Origin: a virus
Lineage: Duplodnaviria > Heunggongvirae > Uroviricota > Caudoviricetes
Reading direction: 5' to 3' (one strand)
DNA length: 11,761 bases
Virus record (IMG/VR): IMGVR_UViG_2585427768_000001
Coordinates: 1 to 11,761 of that record
Shown here one piece after another: positions 2,376 through 11,761 of the stretch (position 1 is its first letter; every line of letters starts with the position of its first letter). A program made the position numbers and the translations under genes. Below the pieces are notes generated by a model. It did not search any database. It was not told where the DNA came from and saw nothing but the letters and a program-made list of their open reading frames with translations.

Positions 2376-2567
2376 TTAAAGACCTGCCGGGATTTCGTTA
2401 TTATCCTGGTGAATAACTTTATCGACCGGGTAACAGTTACCGGGAATTTTCTGTTCGGTTGCTGCAGTCACACACTCCTGCATTGTCCTGTGAACACTGA
2501 CTGCAATATCAACTGGCTCTCCGGAAACAAGAAAAACTGTCAGAACAAGTGCAAATGCTGTATTCAT
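2376..2567 (-). CDS. Hypothetical small protein (63 aa) with hydrophobic N-terminal segment; racC/ydaE-position gene
   Basis: ATG at 2567..2565 overlaps the TGA of the upstream gene (ATGA coupling), with AGGA 8 nt upstream. Product MNTAFALVLTVFLVSGEPVDIAVSVHRTMQECVTAATEQKIPGNCYPVDKVIHQDNNEIPAGL. The track's longer 2376..2621 ORF has a poorly spaced SD. Confidence 0.5.
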   Translation of the reverse strand: MNTAFALVLTVFLVSGEPVDIAVSVHRTMQECVTAATEQKIPGNCYPVDKVIHQDNNEIPAGL

Positions 2568-2752
2568 TGCCAGCATCCTTTTTGTATCGGACGTAAACGG
2601 GCCAGCATTGAAAGAATGCATATTTTATTTAATAGCTCCCGTTCGTGTTTTCTCTTGTTAATGGCATCTTCAGTAAATACAGGGTTACTGATATTGACAC
2701 CAATTTCAAAACAACCTTCAGACGTATTAACGTTTGGTAATAACGTTTCCAT
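2564..2752 (-). CDS. Hypothetical small protein (62 aa); kilR-position gene of the leftward early operon
   Basis: ATG at 2752..2750 preceded by GAGGA with 7-8 nt spacing on the minus strand; product METLLPNVNTSEGCFEIGVNISNPVFTEDAINKRKHERELLNKICILSMLARLRPIQKGCWQ; stop overlaps the start of the next gene. Confidence 0.5.
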   Translation of the reverse strand: METLLPNVNTSEGCFEIGVNISNPVFTEDAINKRKHERELLNKICILSMLARLRPIQKGCWQ

Positions 2753-3004
2753 TATCGCGTCCTCAACAATGAATTTTGTGATGCGGTGCCTGGTGCCTCC
2801 AGGTGACGTTAACCAGTTAACAATTAACGCCGGATACAGAGAATCCACCCATAACACTGTTTTTGGTTTTAACTGTTCCGCGTGCGCTCAGCCGCATTCA
2901 CCACATCACAAAATTCACTTTAAAAAGGGCGGCAGAGCAGTCACGGAGTAAAACTGATACCGCCAAACGTCACCAGAAAATTGATAACAGAGGGCGTTGC
3001 AGCG

Positions 3005-4370: not shown

Positions 4371-4847
4371 TTAAGTTCCTGTCTTGGTGATGTTCTGGCT
4401 TTTCCGTTTTGATTCTTGATTTTTCAGATAGTTAGCTACCTTCATTTCCATTGCGGCAATGTAGGCGCGAACGTCATGATCAACCCAACTAGGCTCCGTA
4501 GCATTTCCAGATAAGATGAAAGCCACAATTGCTCTTTTTTCATCAGAGGCGGCTTGATAAAGGCTGTTTATGTCTAAAAGTTCACTTTTTGTATCTGAAG
4601 TGGATGGGGTTGGTATGGGGTATTCGTTAAGCCCCCAATGCTCTGGACCAACCACATCAGAAAAGAAACGCCATAGTTCTGGAAGTTTGTCTTTACTTAT
4701 CGAACCTTTCTTAATCCAGTCATGGATTGATGGTGGTTGGACTTTGAAATGACGTGCGATTTCCGCCTTTGATTTGACGGCTCCTGATGCAATTTTTTTG
4801 TTAATGGCCTGCTCTATCGCTCGGCCTAAGTCTTTACCACTAAGCAT
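4371..4847 (-). CDS. racR: Prophage repressor, RacR-like (158 aa, HTH)
   Basis: Track ORF MLSGKDLGRAIEQAINKK...; HTH-like segment KSKAEIARHFKVQPPSIHDWIKKG; divergent from the ydaS/ydaT-like genes, flanked by operator repeats. Size and organisation match Rac racR from memory, not verified by search. Confidence 0.7.
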   Translation of the reverse strand: MLSGKDLGRAIEQAINKKIASGAVKSKAEIARHFKVQPPSIHDWIKKGSISKDKLPELWRFFSDVVGPEHWGLNEYPIPTPSTSDTKSELLDINSLYQAASDEKRAIVAFILSGNATEPSWVDHDVRAYIAAMEMKVANYLKNQESKRKSQNITKTGT

Positions 4848-4971: not shown

Positions 4972-5295
4972 ATGAAAAAAGATAACTATTCATTCAAACG
5001 AGCTTGTGCTGTTGTCGGTGGGCAATCAGCAATGGCTAGGCTTTTAGGTGTATCTCCTCCAAGCGTAAATCAATGGATCAAAGGTGTACGTCAGTTACCT
5101 GCTGAGAGATGTCCTGCGATTGAACGAGCAACAAAAGGTGGTGTCCTGTGTGAAGAACTTCGTCCTGATGTTGATTGGACATACTTACGACGCTCGTCAT
5201 GTTATTCGCAGAATATGTCGATGAAGCAACCAAATGACGAAAACGATCATACCCGAAGCATCAAGAGGCAAATGATTCATGAAAATCAAACATGA
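4972..5295 (+). CDS. ydaS: Cro/YdaS-like HTH protein (107 aa)
   Basis: ATG 4972 with GGAG 8 nt upstream; in frame with track ORF 4951..5295. Product MKKDNYSFKRACAVVGGQSAMARLLGVSPPSVNQWIKGVRQLPAERCPAIERATKGG... has the YdaS/Cro-like HTH pattern; first gene from the pR-like promoter. Confidence 0.7.
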   Translation: MKKDNYSFKRACAVVGGQSAMARLLGVSPPSVNQWIKGVRQLPAERCPAIERATKGGVLCEELRPDVDWTYLRRSSCYSQNMSMKQPNDENDHTRSIKRQMIHENQT

Positions 5296-5704
5296 GCACA
5301 TCCGCATGGCGATGAATGCCTGGGCATACCCTGATGGTGAGAAAGTTCCTGCAGCTGAAATAGCCCGGACTTATTTCGAACTGGGGATGACGTTCCCTGA
5401 ACTGTACGACGACAGCCATCCGGAAGCCCTGGCCCGTAATACCCAGAAAATTTTCCGTTGGCTGGATAAAGACACCCCTGATGCTGTTGAAAAAATGCAG
5501 GCTCTGTTACCGGCGATCGAAAAGGCGATGCCGCCTTTGCTGGTGGCCCGTATGCGCAGCCACAGTTCTGAATATTACCGTGAGATCGTCGAACGGAGGG
5601 ATCGGCTGGGGAAGGATGTCGATGATTTTGTTGCGTCAGCGGTTGTTTTGTATGACCAGATGAATCGCGGCGGCCCGGCAGGGAATGCTGTGGTGATGCA
5701 CTAA
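5279..5704 (+). CDS. ydaT: YdaT-like protein (141 aa)
   Basis: Track ORF MKIKHEHIRMAMNAWAYPDGEKVPAAEIARTYFELGMTFPELYDD...; overlaps the 3' end of the ydaS-like gene by 17 nt; position and size match Rac ydaT. Confidence 0.65.
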   Translation: MKIKHEHIRMAMNAWAYPDGEKVPAAEIARTYFELGMTFPELYDDSHPEALARNTQKIFRWLDKDTPDAVEKMQALLPAIEKAMPPLLVARMRSHSSEYYREIVERRDRLGKDVDDFVASAVVLYDQMNRGGPAGNAVVMH

Positions 5705-7502: not shown

Positions 7503-7721
7503 ATGACTACATTATTCAGAAAAGAATATCCGCAAAAAAGTAGAGCGACAGAATTTTTGTTTCTCATTCTGTTTATCGTATTGATGATACCGATATCCCC
7601 TCTAATTTTTGTCTGGGCAATCGGGAAAATAATTGAGCCAGTTACTGAATTGTATACCGACGTTGTATGGGCGTCGTTCAACACACTGCACAATAAAATT
7701 AATCCGTATAAGGAAAACTGA
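7503..7721 (+). CDS. Hypothetical single-pass membrane protein (72 aa)
   Basis: Track ORF; hydrophobic stretch FLFLILFIVLMIPISPLIFVWAIG; stop TGA 7719..7721 lies 1 nt before the next ATG. Confidence 0.55.
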   Translation: MTTLFRKEYPQKSRATEFLFLILFIVLMIPISPLIFVWAIGKIIEPVTELYTDVVWASFNTLHNKINPYKEN

Positions 7722-7722
7722 T

Positions 7723-7986
7723 ATGGCAACTTTGACAAAAAAAGAACGGGCATGGTTGAACGAATTACAGGAAGTTCTTGATCGCTGTCCATCACCGAAA
7801 AAAATTGGCTTTTACACCATTGGCGATAAAAGCATTTACCTGTATGACCTACGCCGCATGGATGAAATCATGGAGGCTCTTGATAATCGTTCGTCGATGG
7901 ATTGGTGTGTTGCTGTTCATGATATGAATGCAGGGTTTGATGAAAAGATTTTGTTCCCCTCATCAGTTGAAAGCACTGCGGGTTAA
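7723..7986 (+). CDS. Hypothetical protein (87 aa)
   Basis: ATG 7723 with AGGA 8 nt upstream; in frame with track ORF 7633..7986; product MATLTKKERAWLNELQEVLDRCPSPKKIGFYTIGDKSIYLYDLRRMDEIMEALDNRSSMDWCVAVHDMNAGFDEKILFPSSVESTAG. Confidence 0.6.
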   Translation: MATLTKKERAWLNELQEVLDRCPSPKKIGFYTIGDKSIYLYDLRRMDEIMEALDNRSSMDWCVAVHDMNAGFDEKILFPSSVESTAG

Positions 7987-7996
7987 GGAGTAACAC

Positions 7997-8164
7997 ATGA
8001 CCACTATTACCAAAGAACGTATTGAATTGTTCATTAAAAACCCGCTTGAAAACGGGCTTACCCGTGGTGAACAAATGGAACTGGCACGGATTGCGCTGGC
8101 ATCGCTGGAAGCAGAGCCGGTTGTGTTCTGGTTTGAAAAATATCAAGAAGGGGCTACGGCATGA
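7997..8164 (+). CDS. Hypothetical small protein (55 aa), short paralogue of the downstream 114-aa protein
   Basis: Below the track's 60-aa limit; found by hand. ATG 7997 with AAGGAG 6 nt upstream; product [55 protein letters not shown]; stop TGA 8162..8164 overlaps the next ATG (ATGA). Confidence 0.5.
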
Positions 8165-8505
8165 CGACTTTTACCAGAGAGCAGTTAATAGCTCACGCAG
8201 AGGAGACTATTGAAGCACAGAGACTGTGCATACCGGGCACAATCGACCATGACATCATCCGCACATATAAGATGGATATTGCTGTTCTGGAAATCGCACT
8301 GGTATCGCTGGCAGCAGAGCCAGCCGGTAAATTGCATGAATACAAACCAGTGGGATATCAGCGTCTGGTCGATGAGTTAACCATGCTGGTAAAGCAGTTA
8401 ACCTGGCAACTGAGGAAAGCGAAGCCAGACTGCAAATTACCGGATAAGGCGATGAGTTATCTGGAGCGGAACGGACTGATAAGCGTGGAGGATATTTTAC
8501 GATGA
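8161..8505 (+). CDS. Hypothetical protein (114 aa), paralogue of the upstream 55-aa protein
   Basis: Track ORF; shares the N-terminal MTTxT(K/R)E and the motif I-A-L-x-S-L-x-A-E-P with the 55-aa protein; DNA-level similarity about 80% over about 25 nt (8093..8119 vs 8304..8330). Confidence 0.6.
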
Positions 8506-8585
8506 CCTGGCCTGAAGCATTAACAACGGTAGGAATTGCGATGGCGGTGGCGCTGGTGGTGTATTCGATTTGCCGCTGGGGATAA
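8502..8585 (+). CDS. Possible hydrophobic micropeptide (27 aa), translationally coupled to the 114-aa gene
   Basis: ATG 8502 overlaps the upstream TGA (ATGA); product [27 protein letters not shown]; no strong SD; too short to judge from sequence alone. Confidence 0.3.
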
Positions 8586-8796
8586 AAACGGTTTGCGGGA
8601 AAAGGAGAGTTAAGTAGAATTGCAGCGGGTGCTTGAGGCTATCTGTCTCAGGCATGAACACCAAAAGGCAGATAGAGAAAAGCCCCAGTTAACATTACGC
8701 GTCCGGCAAGACGCTTAACATTAATCTGAGGCCATATCTATGCTCTACACACGTAGGTTAGCCTCTTACGTGCCGAAAGGCAAGGAGAAGCAGGCT

Positions 8797-8952
8797 ATGA
8801 AGCAGCAAAAGGCGATGCTAATCGCCCTGATCGTCATCTGTTTAACCGTCATTGTGACGGCACTGGTAACGAGGAAAGACCTCTGCGAGGTACGAATCCG
8901 AACCGGCCAGACGGAGGTCGCTGTCTTCACAGCTTACGAACCTGAGGAGTAA
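8797..8952 (+). CDS. hok: Hok/Gef-family type I toxin (51 aa), HokD/RelF-like
   Basis: Product MKQQKAMLIALIVICLTVIVTALVTRKDLCEVRIRTGQTEVAVFTAYEPEE matches the Hok family signature; AAGGAG 9 nt upstream of ATG 8797. An in-frame upstream ATG at 8740 with its own GAGG SD gives the track's 70-aa form. Confidence 0.85.
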   Translation: MKQQKAMLIALIVICLTVIVTALVTRKDLCEVRIRTGQTEVAVFTAYEPEE

Positions 8953-9020
8953 GAGACCTGGCGGGGGAGAAATCCCTCGCCACCTCTGATGTGTCAGGCA
9001 TCCTCAACGCACCCGCACTT

Positions 9021-9049
9021 AACCCGCTTCGGCGGGTTTTGTTCTTTTT
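9021..9049 (+). terminator. Rho-independent terminator after hok
   Basis: AACCCGC-TTCG-GCGGG followed by TTTTGTTCTTTTT; GC stem, tetraloop and T-run read directly. Confidence 0.7.
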
Positions 9050-9196
9050 GTGAAAAAAATTCCCTTAAAGGAGATTTTTTTAACTAAAAAGGTTTACTTT
9101 GCTTTCGTATATGGTAAATTTTAGGAATTAGAATTTAAGCGCCCATCAGGCTTGCGTTAGGCAAGTCTGCTAAATCAACAAATTGAGGATAAAATC

Positions 9197-9556
9197 ATGG
9201 CACTCACTGAATTCGGTAAGGCCGTTAGAAAAGCGAGGATCGATACTGACAGTACTCTTCTGACTATGTCTCAAGAACTGGGCACTACGCCAGCGTTTCT
9301 TAGCGGTTTAGAAACTGGTAGCAAAAAAATACCTCTGAAGTGGGTTAAGAAGATTGATTCTTACTTCAAGGCCAAAGGTGTAGAAATTGAAGGGTTACAG
9401 GAGCTAGCGGCAGTTGCGAATGACTCAGTTCCAGTAAACGGTTTGTCTCAGCAACAGAAAATGCTTGTAGCGGGATTCGCTAAGTCGCAGTTTACGCCGG
9501 AACAGCTAAAGAGTTTTGCAGATTTATTGCAAAAGATTAATAACAATGAGGGGTAA
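9197..9556 (+). CDS. XRE-family helix-turn-helix transcriptional regulator (119 aa)
   Basis: ATG 9197 with GAGG 8 nt upstream; N-terminal HTH_3-like segment LTEFGKAVRKARIDTDSTLLTMSQELGTTPAFLSGLETG followed by an extension of about 60 aa. Confidence 0.75.
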   Translation: MALTEFGKAVRKARIDTDSTLLTMSQELGTTPAFLSGLETGSKKIPLKWVKKIDSYFKAKGVEIEGLQELAAVANDSVPVNGLSQQQKMLVAGFAKSQFTPEQLKSFADLLQKINNNEG

Positions 9557-9558
9557 TT

Positions 9559-10035
9559 ATGTATCAAATGAGAGGTAACAGGGTGTCACCGATGCAAGAA
9601 GAAGAAATAGCCTACAGAGCTATAAACTTCTGTAATGCTATTGGTCTTACAGCCTCAAAGCGCAAAAGAAAGCGTTATGATATGTTCTTTGAAAGCCTGT
9701 CAATTTATGGGGTTACTCTTGACGTCAGGACCGACAAAGAGTGGGAGGCTCTGACGTATGATCTAACTATCGGACATTGTGACCCCGCTTCTCTAACAAT
9801 TACGGTTCCCAATAAAATATATGTGAATGCTTGCCTTGGGGAAGAGCATGCACTTGCTGTTATCTTCCACGAGCTAGGTCATTTGCTTCTTGGACACAAA
9901 GCAGTTTTACACTTTTCAGTTAAAGAACCTACTCGTATTGAGGATGCAGAATGGCAGGCAGATACATTTGCGGATATCGTACTGGAAACAATTGGCGTGA
10001 GAACACAACAGATGTCGTTCGATTTTTATATGTAA
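9559..10035 (+). CDS. ImmA/IrrE-family zinc metallopeptidase (158 aa; HExxH)
   Basis: ATG 9559 is 2 nt after the HTH gene stop, with GAGGGG 5 nt upstream; HExxH motif in HELGHLLLGH plus a downstream E/D-rich segment, typical of the ImmA/IrrE family. Confidence 0.75.
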   Translation: MYQMRGNRVSPMQEEEIAYRAINFCNAIGLTASKRKRKRYDMFFESLSIYGVTLDVRTDKEWEALTYDLTIGHCDPASLTITVPNKIYVNACLGEEHALAVIFHELGHLLLGHKAVLHFSVKEPTRIEDAEWQADTFADIVLETIGVRTQQMSFDFYM

Positions 10036-10747: not shown

Positions 10748-11291
10748 GTGCGGGTATTACTTCGACCTGTTCTGGTACCGGAACTCGGGCTGGTGATCGT
10801 TAAGCCGGGCCGTGAATCCATGCCGGTATTCCACAATACCCGGGTACTGGTGGAGCCGGAACCGAAAAGCATGCGTAATCTGTCGTCCGGGGTCGTTCCT
10901 GCCGTTCGCCAGCCGCTGGCGGAGGATAAATCATTACTGCCATTTTTCAGCGACGAACGAGTGATTCGTGCTGCTGGTGGCGCTGGCGCATTGTCTGACT
11001 GGTTACTGCGCCATGTTAAATCCTGCCAGTGGCCACACGGCGATTATCACCACAGTGAAACCGTCATTCACCGTTATGGTACCGGCGCAATGGTGTTGTG
11101 CTGGCACTGCGACAACCAGCTGCGCGACCAGACCTCCGAATCACTCGGGCAACTTGCTCACCAAAACCTGTCTGCATGGATGATTGACGTCATACGCCAT
11201 GCAATGAATGGCTCGCAGGAACGGGAATTATCGCTGGCTGAATTATCCTGGTGGGCGGTCCGCAATCAGGTGGCGGACGCGCTACCGGAAG
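10748..11291 (+). pseudogene. DUF968-like (YdfU-like) Cys/His-rich protein gene, 3' part removed by IS insertion
   Basis: GTG 10748 with GGAGG 4 nt upstream, overlapping the upstream stop; Cys/His motif CQWPHGDYHH...CWHCDNQ; the frame runs into the IS terminal repeat at 11292, so the track ORF tail after ...ADALPEV is IS-derived. Confidence 0.55.

Positions 11292-11761
<470 letters not shown>

Follow-up and report, generated by a model that had tools for sequence, protein, structure and literature searches.

What do the small, tightly packed genes directly upstream of hok encode in a prophage of Escherichia coli? We addressed this question in a DNA stretch of 11,761 nucleotides (nt; IMG/VR record IMGVR_UViG_2585427768_000001), hereafter the window, which by its sequence is a segment of a Rac/Qin-like lambdoid prophage of E. 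coli. Three consecutive open reading frames (ORFs) of 55, 114 and 27 codons are present there, joined by ATGA stop/start overlaps at 8161-8164 and 8502-8505, as a first-pass annotation had described. That annotation interpreted the first two ORFs as an internal gene duplication and as a candidate toxin-antitoxin (TA) or abortive-infection module, followed by a possible small hydrophobic peptide. We came to a different view, and consider it quite probable that the region is a shuffled array of accessory modules that ends in a genuine 27-codon gene for a membrane peptide. The 55- and 114-codon genes belong to a large family of shuffled accessory genes of prophages, which has been catalogued but not characterised. 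The 27-codon ORF, here called the micro-gene, appears from its conservation to be a genuine gene for a small single-pass membrane protein. The ORFs and their translation signals are as follows.

7984-7990, plus strand: TAAGGAG, Shine-Dalgarno (SD) sequence of the 55-aa (amino acid) ORF, 6 nt before its ATG, read from the sequence
7997-8164, plus strand: 55-aa ORF, RefSeq WP_000207997.1, hypothetical protein
8148-8153, plus strand: SD-like AAGGGG of the 114-aa gene, 7 nt before its ATG
8161-8505, plus strand: 114-aa ORF, RefSeq WP_000206826.1, hypothetical protein
8487-8492, plus strand: GGAGGA, SD of the 27-codon ORF, 9 nt before its ATG and within the final codons of the 114-aa gene
8502-8585, plus strand: 27-codon ORF (27 aa), in none of the RefSeq records inspected

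The TAAGGAG motif overlaps the TAA stop of the preceding 87-aa gene. From the gene for a DUF4014 protein (7503) to 8585, neighbouring genes are separated by gaps of at most 10 nt or overlap, forming one operon segment, and a consensus scan found neither promoter-like nor terminator-like sites between 8164 and 8585. Two earlier statements about these ORFs needed correction. The 55-aa gene had been described as easy to miss and is in fact annotated in RefSeq, and the SD of the 27-codon ORF, which had been called weak, is strong.

The 27-codon ORF had been suspected of being a chance reading frame. Its hydrophobic, membrane-like character was confirmed and found to be conserved; the suspicion of chance did not hold, and the micro-gene is now the best-supported new feature of the region. 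Using tblastn, we found homologs in 933W, VT1-Sakai, TH18, PhiR5_1 and WGPS2 at 59-78% identity and in POCJ13 at 56%. Each diverged homolog extends over 27 codon positions and shares an ATGA with the stop of the gene before it. All are open and hydrophobic except that of POCJ13, whose third codon is a nonsense codon. Four of the homologs are given here.

VT1-Sakai: MNWPEAFTAVGVAIAVAFILYSLFRWG
TH18: MTWPEAFTTVGVVMAVAFAVYSVCRWG
PhiR5_1: MSWPDAIVTLGVVFAAAFVVFSICRWG
WGPS2: MTWPDAFAIVGVAMSIALIVFAICRWG

Five positions do not vary among five diverged variants (M1, W3, G11, R25 and W26), two more are almost constant (P4 and A15), and the peptide ends in R-W-G. Residues 6-24 reach grand average of hydropathy (GRAVY) values of 2.1-2.8 in these variants, with W3 and W26 flanking the hydrophobic stretch and R25 at its C-terminal end, and the hydrophobic character persists at identities of 55-63%. 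The ratio of nonsynonymous to synonymous polymorphism (pN/pS) was 0.43 in the micro-gene frame, a moderate value based on eight short, diverged sequences; the remaining two sense frames gave 0.84 and 1.45. Of the sites that vary, 14, 12 and 21 are at codon positions 1, 2 and 3, respectively. Some variants carry an in-frame insertion or deletion of 6 nt, and the stop codon, either TAA or TGA, stays at an unchanged place. A conserved length and frame, a start codon with its ribosome-binding site and a predicted membrane-spanning hydrophobic stretch were all found, as in a gene for a small single-pass membrane protein.

The surroundings of the micro-gene are mosaic. When five phage and prophage contexts are aligned, they remain similar throughout the 27-codon ORF and part at its stop codon or a few bases from it. 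The DNA on the 3' side differs and consists of the hok promoter, an opposite-strand toxin/antitoxin pair or xis-int. We also scanned IMG/VR with a degenerate pattern for the last nine codons, which returned 119 loci in 79 distinct 290-nt regions. Exactly 27 codons are kept in 72 of the 79 regions, a count to be read with the fact that the pattern forces conservation of the last nine codons and that many of the loci, being from close relatives among the prophages, are non-independent. On the downstream side these regions show 20 different octamers, with homology ending at the stop codon in a dozen or more contexts, and upstream and downstream flanks occur in 34 combinations. The genes upstream have at least four unrelated ends, namely the C-terminal module of EaA-like proteins (...EDILR-stop), DUF551 (...PEPPQEVNQ-stop), an Ea22-like end (...NIEQEVNR-stop) and ...GGHEEGDK-stop, and behind every one of these classes the start of the micro-gene overlaps the upstream stop by ATGA or GTGA. 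Elsewhere its SD is AGGAGGTG, 6 nt before the start, and the same junction starts a DUF551 gene in other prophages. At the level of sequence, these contexts establish the micro-gene as a mobile cassette at the end of the array, preceded by a strong SD and coupled by overlap to the array's last gene.

The micro-gene is widespread and mostly unannotated. A tblastn search with the 27-aa peptide matched 91 phage records, mostly from Escherichia, 'Enterobacteria' and Shiga toxin (Stx)-converting phages, with a few Shigella phages. In ten phage records that we inspected the match begins 4 nt before the end of the upstream coding sequence, and nine of the ten carry no annotation for it; in 933W, the unannotated micro-gene, with its ATG at complement of 58909, lies between L0139 and sokW/hokW. 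In the tenth record, vB_EcoS-689R5, RAST called a 36-aa frameshifted version. Of 5,426 complete E. coli genomes, 1,369 (~25%) carry close variants, and a single genome can hold as many as five. Annotators outside RefSeq have on a few occasions submitted the exact peptide under the name 'prophage protein' or 'hypothetical protein' (for example, CAL6704654.1, AOM45384.1 and ETI78407.1). It belongs to no PHROG and to no Pfam or NCBIfam family, matches the KdpF model weakly (E 0.12), and its sequence is not mentioned in the searchable literature. An apparent fusion of the peptide to 121-185-aa DUF551 proteins, seen on clustering at 90%, was rejected as an artefact: those proteins do not contain the peptide, and the link is false because partial, frame-extended ORFs bridge the two. 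The presence of the micro-gene in the medically important Stx phages 933W and Sakai adds to its relevance. If translated, it would be one more gene of the exo-xis/ea regions, whose genes are reported to influence lysogeny and the induction of Stx prophages.

We then consider the two genes in front of it. The N-terminal similarity of the 55- and 114-aa proteins noted in the first-pass annotation survives statistics (BLASTP E=1e-5, 18 of 54 residues identical), the genes being paralogous over their first ~45-55 residues, and the shared motifs MTTxT(K/R)E and IALxSLxAEP are real. The local duplication that had been read into it is not borne out: the two proteins carry two different subtypes, with 33% protein identity, of an N-terminal module (N-module) that occurs family-wide. 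Both match PHROGs 660, 60, 3323 and 5117, the best being 3323 (E 1e-19) and 60 (E 4e-18) for the 55-aa protein and 660 (E 8e-43) for the 114-aa protein. The 55-aa ORF consists of an EaA-type N-module (residues 1-41) and a 14-aa tail (residues 42-55). Its N-module DNA (window 7991-8116, 126 nt) is 93% identical to the start of Salmonella phage P22 eaA, and its homologs, which are EaA, DUF551 and DUF550 proteins, are alike only in the first ~41 residues. The same type of N-module also begins many short proteins with unrelated tails. For the other subtype, a near-identical copy of the 114-aa N-module is joined to a DUF551 domain in protein P0066, and K-12 YfdT is a relative (BLASTP E=8e-6).

The last ~50 residues of the 114-aa protein also close 190-200-aa EaA-like proteins and one DUF551 protein, and we read them as a second portable module (C-module). 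An AlphaFold2 model of the 114-aa protein, with a mean predicted local distance difference test score (pLDDT) of 83.5, places helices at 6-26, 30-51, 64-87, 93-103 and 109-113. It divides into the N-module at residues 1-54, a two-helix hairpin with a pLDDT of about 90, a low-confidence linker at 55-63 and a three-helix C-module at 64-114. Foldseek comparison of this model with the PDB returned generic helical hairpins only, at E>0.7 (none below E 0.79), and a profile search of PDB sequences with the 114-aa protein gave nothing below E 0.35. The sole significant match among viral structures (BFVD) was N15 gp45, an uncharacterised member of the same family.

To describe the family we used a profile built from both N-module subtypes, which took in the C-module as well, and searched representatives of 50%-identity clusters at E<=0.001. 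This yielded 1,635 cluster representatives of 55-457 aa, and the N-module sits at residue 1 in nearly all of the module-containing matches listed. Among 130 family representatives, Pfam assigned DUF551 to 18 and dATP/dGTP pyrophosphohydrolase to 4, and the rest have no Pfam domain. Both window ORFs fit the EaA/YfdT type: their N-module starts at Met1, and they belong to an array of accessory genes in the early operon of a lambdoid or P22-like (pro)phage. The N-module, which occurs in EaA, YfdT, N15 gp45 and numerous DUF551 and DUF550 proteins, is so far without a Pfam model and deserves recognition by annotators. A search of genome contigs with the 114-aa protein gave a single locus, on a contig of a metagenome-assembled genome (MAG) of Segatella; this 1.8 kb Segatella copri contig, JAJXBQ010000377.1, carries a 100% identical copy of the gene. 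The record of Actinobacillus phage vB_Apl-pPE4 holds a 92.5% match to window 8374-8600. Both matches look like mis-binning or contamination, or else recent transfer.

The modules appear to be exchanged at defined joints, for which three stretches of the window are relevant.

8090-8118, plus strand: direct repeat, copy 1 (29 nt), encoding the IALxSLEAEP stretch
8293-8321, plus strand: direct repeat, copy 2 (29 nt), 86% identical to copy 1
8120-8164, plus strand: tail of the 55-aa ORF, doubling as 5' flank of the 114-aa gene with its translation-initiation region

Several genomes encode P0031, a 101-aa protein that corresponds precisely to the N-module of the 55-aa ORF fused to the 114-aa gene at the IALxSLEAEP motif, and we identify the 29-nt repeat that encodes this motif as the recombination joint. 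The same 15-residue tail that closes the 55-aa ORF also closes an HNH endonuclease gene in ArgO145-type Stx phages and a different N-module variant, P0240. Since the same tail ends these other proteins, it represents the 5' flank of the 114-aa gene with its ribosome-binding site, and any gene placed ahead of the 114-aa gene by recombination would read into that flank. We determined what precedes the 114-aa gene at 103 loci: 73 have an N-module stub there, 26 an HNH endonuclease gene and 4 some other gene. N-module stubs also occur with other tails and other neighbours, and read-through fusions of the 55- and 114-aa genes exist (P0001, 167 aa, and P0002). From these patterns, the 55-aa ORF is best described as an N-module without a cargo domain, presumably left by module exchange. 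In P0017 (120 aa, 98 member sequences), the first nine codons (MATLTKEER) of a gene of the 87-aa type are joined to the 114-aa gene at T(K/R)E; judging from this protein, gene starts such as that of window 7723-7986 (87-aa type) may be a second recombination joint. The region thus illustrates how lambdoid accessory genes are rebuilt, with a joint at the end of a shared N-module giving rise to stubs, fusions and new domain combinations.

Several other explanations of the 27-codon stretch were weighed against a membrane-peptide gene. The stretch 8502-8585 might contain no gene and be conserved as DNA or RNA, for instance as a recombination hotspot with Chi, as an untranslated part at the 3' end of the array or as 'linker' sequence of the mosaic. 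Chi (GCTGGTGG) does lie inside the ORF (8552-8559, plus strand) and is present in 97 of the 119 pattern-selected copies, mosaic junctions lie on both sides, a few copies are frameshifted or have no ATG, and RefSeq annotation omits the ORF in all inspected records. However, Chi is gone from all diverged homologs, which keep the 27-codon frame, the hydrophobic profile, W3, G11 and R25-W26, and predicted RNA structure across 8470-8630 is weaker than in shuffles (z=+1.9). The strong SD and the ATGA or GTGA overlap are kept behind four unrelated types of upstream gene, indels are in frame, stop substitutions hold the end point, and third-position changes dominate. We regard a purely DNA- or RNA-level role as unlikely. 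Could the real gene instead be a 55-aa ORF on the minus strand, at 8497-8664? This ORF matches phrog_7511 (E 2e-25) and phrog_19126 (E 3e-23), and equivalents are annotated in POCJ13 (gp73) and Stx2 phage II (C38), but three of eight diverged homologs have stop codons in it, its pN/pS is 1.23, and its N-terminal half overlies the hok promoter module, which is exchanged for other DNA in many contexts. We find it scarcely credible as a gene. The two PHROGs probably collect shadow ORFs that were called since the sense ORF is too short, and several phage records carry a spurious antisense ORF where the micro-gene lies. The peptide could also be a type I-like membrane toxin, or a phage lysis or exclusion factor. 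Its size and hydrophobicity are like those of known small membrane toxins, it adjoins hok, and it is coupled to an upstream frame just as translation of hok is coupled to mok. Against such an activity, neither an antisense RNA nor a regulatory leader was detected for the micro-gene, with no Rfam match in 8502-8585 and no stable structure; it is the last cistron of an ordinary early operon, as many as five copies are tolerated per genome, and disrupted copies show no pattern of counter-selection. We judge a toxin, lysis or exclusion role to be quite unlikely. It overlaps with our own explanation, in that the product would still be a real membrane peptide and only its activity would differ.

For the 55- and 114-aa genes, with or without the 27-aa peptide, the alternative is the TA or abortive-infection module that had been suggested for them, occupying the slot of relBE in Qin. 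The positional part of that suggestion is correct: the cluster lies directly upstream of hok, as relB-relE lie directly upstream of hokD in K-12 Qin. The layout would fit too, as the stop codon of a small gene overlaps the start codon of a larger gene behind it, and the adjoining hok/sok is itself a type I toxin-antitoxin system. The functional part is not supported. Scans of all three ORFs against Pfam, NCBIfam and PADLOC gave no match (none at E<=1 for the gene pair), and no toxin or antitoxin fold was recognised, PDB structure matches having E>0.7, so that the recognised family or fold expected of a type II TA system was not found. Neither are the two genes conserved as a pair: as described, an HNH endonuclease gene takes the place of the stub ahead of the 114-aa gene at 26 of 103 loci and other genes do so at 4, N-module stubs occur with other tails and neighbours, and the two genes also exist fused (P0031, P0001, P0002). 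The proteins have a common N-terminal domain, and TA partners that share one are to our knowledge unusual. In arrays of this kind most genes are joined by ATGA overlaps; where an EaA-like gene meets a DUF551 gene, for instance, the identical ...CGATGACC junction is used. Because these overlaps are common throughout the arrays, they are not specific to TA pairs. The slot shared with relBE is a property of a mosaic insertion site and no evidence of common function. We therefore consider a TA or abortive-infection module very improbable.

Some observations weigh against the array and micro-gene reading itself. In addition to the biases of the pattern scan and the moderate pN/pS value given above, translation of the 55-, 114- and 27-aa ORFs is predicted from sequence. 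One antisense frame, whose third positions coincide with those of the sense frame, has a pN/pS of 0.46. As this value mirrors that of the sense frame, selection statistics alone leave the strand unfixed; we assigned the sense strand because of its start codon, SD and fixed length and because the antisense frame has no ORF of at least 20 codons. Damaged copies of the micro-gene also occur, with a 1-nt deletion behind the ATGA at ~8 loci, an ATA start at 2 and nonsense codons at 2 and in POCJ13. Since a minority of copies is damaged, the micro-gene is dispensable in prophages. The 55-aa ORF may be a non-functional by-product of recombination. Finally, AlphaFold2 modelled the natural 55+114 fusion P0001 (167 aa) with low confidence only (pLDDT 54, predicted template modelling score 0.42), part of which stems from the alignment, in which MAFFT placed homologs of the 55-aa protein on the second N-module.

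Taken with these reservations, the array and micro-gene reading can be put as a model. The anatomy of the locus, its modularity, the conservation of the micro-gene, the geometry of the coupling and the mosaic boundaries are direct observations, on which the following steps would build. The region would be the distal end of an 'ea/exo-xis'-type array of small packed accessory genes in the rightward early operon, where the array lies between the replication genes and hok. Such an array would be assembled from interchangeable parts, namely an N-module from residue 1, a variable C-terminal cargo and a closing 27-codon gene, and recombination at the IALxSLEAEP-encoding stretch would swap, fuse or delete cargo domains. 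The 114-aa ORF would then be a short EaA-family protein made of the N-terminal hairpin and the three-helix C-module. Ribosomes that end on any upstream gene may reinitiate at the ATGA by means of the strong SD, and the 27-aa peptide would in this way be made along with the preceding EaA-, DUF551- or Ea22-type protein. The peptide is predicted to insert as a single helix, its hydrophobic stretch bounded by a Trp on either side; by the positive-inside rule, Arg25 is probably on the cytoplasmic side. G11 and A15 form a small-xxx-small face of the kind typical for packing between helices, which suggests oligomerisation or binding to a membrane protein.

By analogy, we infer that the peptide may act through helix-helix contact with a membrane protein. 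The exo-xis genes and yfdT have been reported as non-essential early modulators, and EaA-type proteins are, on the same analogy, probably non-essential early modulators of host physiology. Tentatively, the micro-gene could be a functional mobile cassette of the accessory arrays of E. coli/Shigella lambdoid and Stx phages, serving as a membrane partner or anchor for variable soluble proteins or acting alone on a host membrane protein; this is possible, and we hold it with little confidence. If it were true, RefSeq would have left out a widespread phage gene, carried by one in four complete E. coli genomes and by the 933W and Sakai Stx phages.

The remainder of the window agrees with its assignment. 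Its part from 7600 to 9100 is 100% identical to E. coli strain E7476 and other strains. The annotated order in E7476 starts with a recE-like exonuclease gene, DUF1482, dicB (with DicF RNA) and racR, continues with a ydaS-like gene, a ydaT-like gene, an O-like gene, DUF977, a 70-aa gene, DUF4014 and an 87-aa gene, and ends with the 55-aa gene, the 114-aa gene, hokD and a helix-turn-helix (HTH) gene. In this strain, insertion sequence IS1 is inserted right behind the HTH gene. The DicF small RNA (sRNA), dicB, racR and the ydaS/ydaT-like pair make up a Rac/Qin-type region of immunity and cell-division inhibition. The flanking features are listed below.

2564-2752, minus strand: dicB
2927-2978, minus strand: DicF sRNA (Rfam, 76.7 bits)
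4371-4847, minus strand: racR
4972-5704, plus strand: ydaS/ydaT-like pair (RefSeq 'toxin YdaT family')
8593-8620, plus strand: promoter-like TTGCGG-16 nt-TAGAAT, read from the sequence, below the threshold of the consensus scan
8627-8802, plus strand: 5' part of hok mRNA and sok antisense region (Rfam RF01794, 117 bits, E 1e-26)
8797-8952, plus strand: hok toxin gene (Pfam HOK_GEF E 1.2e-23; RefSeq hokD)
9197-10035, plus strand: HTH gene (119 aa) and, 2 nt later, a gene for a 158-aa HExxH protein, directly 3' of hok
11334-11744, minus strand: C-terminal part of an IS3-family transposase (rve, rve_3, rve_2), at the window end

Both the Hok/Gef peptide and the hok mRNA/sok RNA element are present, which identifies the locus as hok/sok. 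A mok-type frame that overlaps hok runs from 8740, and a terminator-like hairpin lies downstream of hok at 9021-9038. TTGCGG-16 nt-TAGAAT ends 7 nt before the Rfam hok/sok match (8627) and is likely, from its sequence and position, to be the hok mRNA promoter. The mosaic boundary falls between this putative promoter and the stop codon of the micro-gene. Behind hok, the 158-aa protein has a Peptidase_M78/IrrE match (Pfam E 2.4e-5) and weak PADLOC matches to capH/capP and RmrA, and the genes for this ImmA-like peptidase and the XRE-type HTH protein are better candidates for a regulatory or defence pair than the 55- and 114-aa genes. The IS3-family transposase breaks the prophage behind a DUF968-like fragment (10748-11452).

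Chi occurs five times on the plus strand of the window (373, 5539, 7409, 8552 and 10973) and not on the minus strand, compared to 0.36 expected from shuffles. As candidate features of the micro-gene region, Chi as a conserved element was ruled out by its absence from the diverged homologs, and a structured RNA or terminator in 8470-8630 by the z value given above and the lack of a terminator-like site.

P22 EaA is among the known systems closest to the array. The first ~41 codons of the 55-aa ORF are nearly those of the eaA start (93% DNA identity), EaA-like proteins of 190-200 aa (P0090) end in the same C-module as the 114-aa protein, and P22 EaA and the window genes are alike in being non-structural accessory genes of an early operon. 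Unlike P22 EaA, the window has its modules split over two short genes, without the central ~100 residues; and P22 eaA lies between int and the recombination genes, whereas the window array lies in the rightward operon behind the replication genes.

K-12 YfdT (prophage CPS-53) resembles the window genes in its N-module, MTTFT...EIALVSLEVEP, at the BLASTP value given above, in having no Pfam domain, and in following the DUF551 gene yfdS. It differs in its C-terminal half, and no 27-codon ORF lies behind yfdT. YfdT is said to be without a motif. In multicopy, either yfdT or yfdS, in combination with yfdQR, suppresses hda-185 over-initiation (PMC4776307). This inhibition of replication initiation, to which yfdT contributes redundantly with yfdS, is the sole experimental lead in the family, and an indirect one. 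In Ea22 variants the N-terminus is conserved and the C-terminal domains, such as DUF551, are 'portable' and swapped (PMC10834534). This is the same modular design as in the window, and in some phages an Ea22-like gene directly precedes the micro-gene; the Ea22 N-terminal family (Pfam Ead_Ea22) has a coiled coil, however, and no sequence similarity to the window N-module. Qin relBE shares the slot directly upstream of hok in a related prophage, but has no sequence, family or fold relationship to the 55- and 114-aa genes.

Small membrane proteins of E. coli such as KdpF, AcrZ and MgtS (the class of Hemm et al. 2008) are usually missed by annotation and are identified by conservation and a ribosome-binding site. 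The 27-aa peptide is like them in having fewer than 50 aa and one hydrophobic helix. It has no significant homology to them and, unlike them, is phage-borne, a mobile cassette, and always overlap-coupled to a variable gene. In conclusion, the micro-gene is a new, well-supported candidate for a small membrane protein, rather than a new kind of system.

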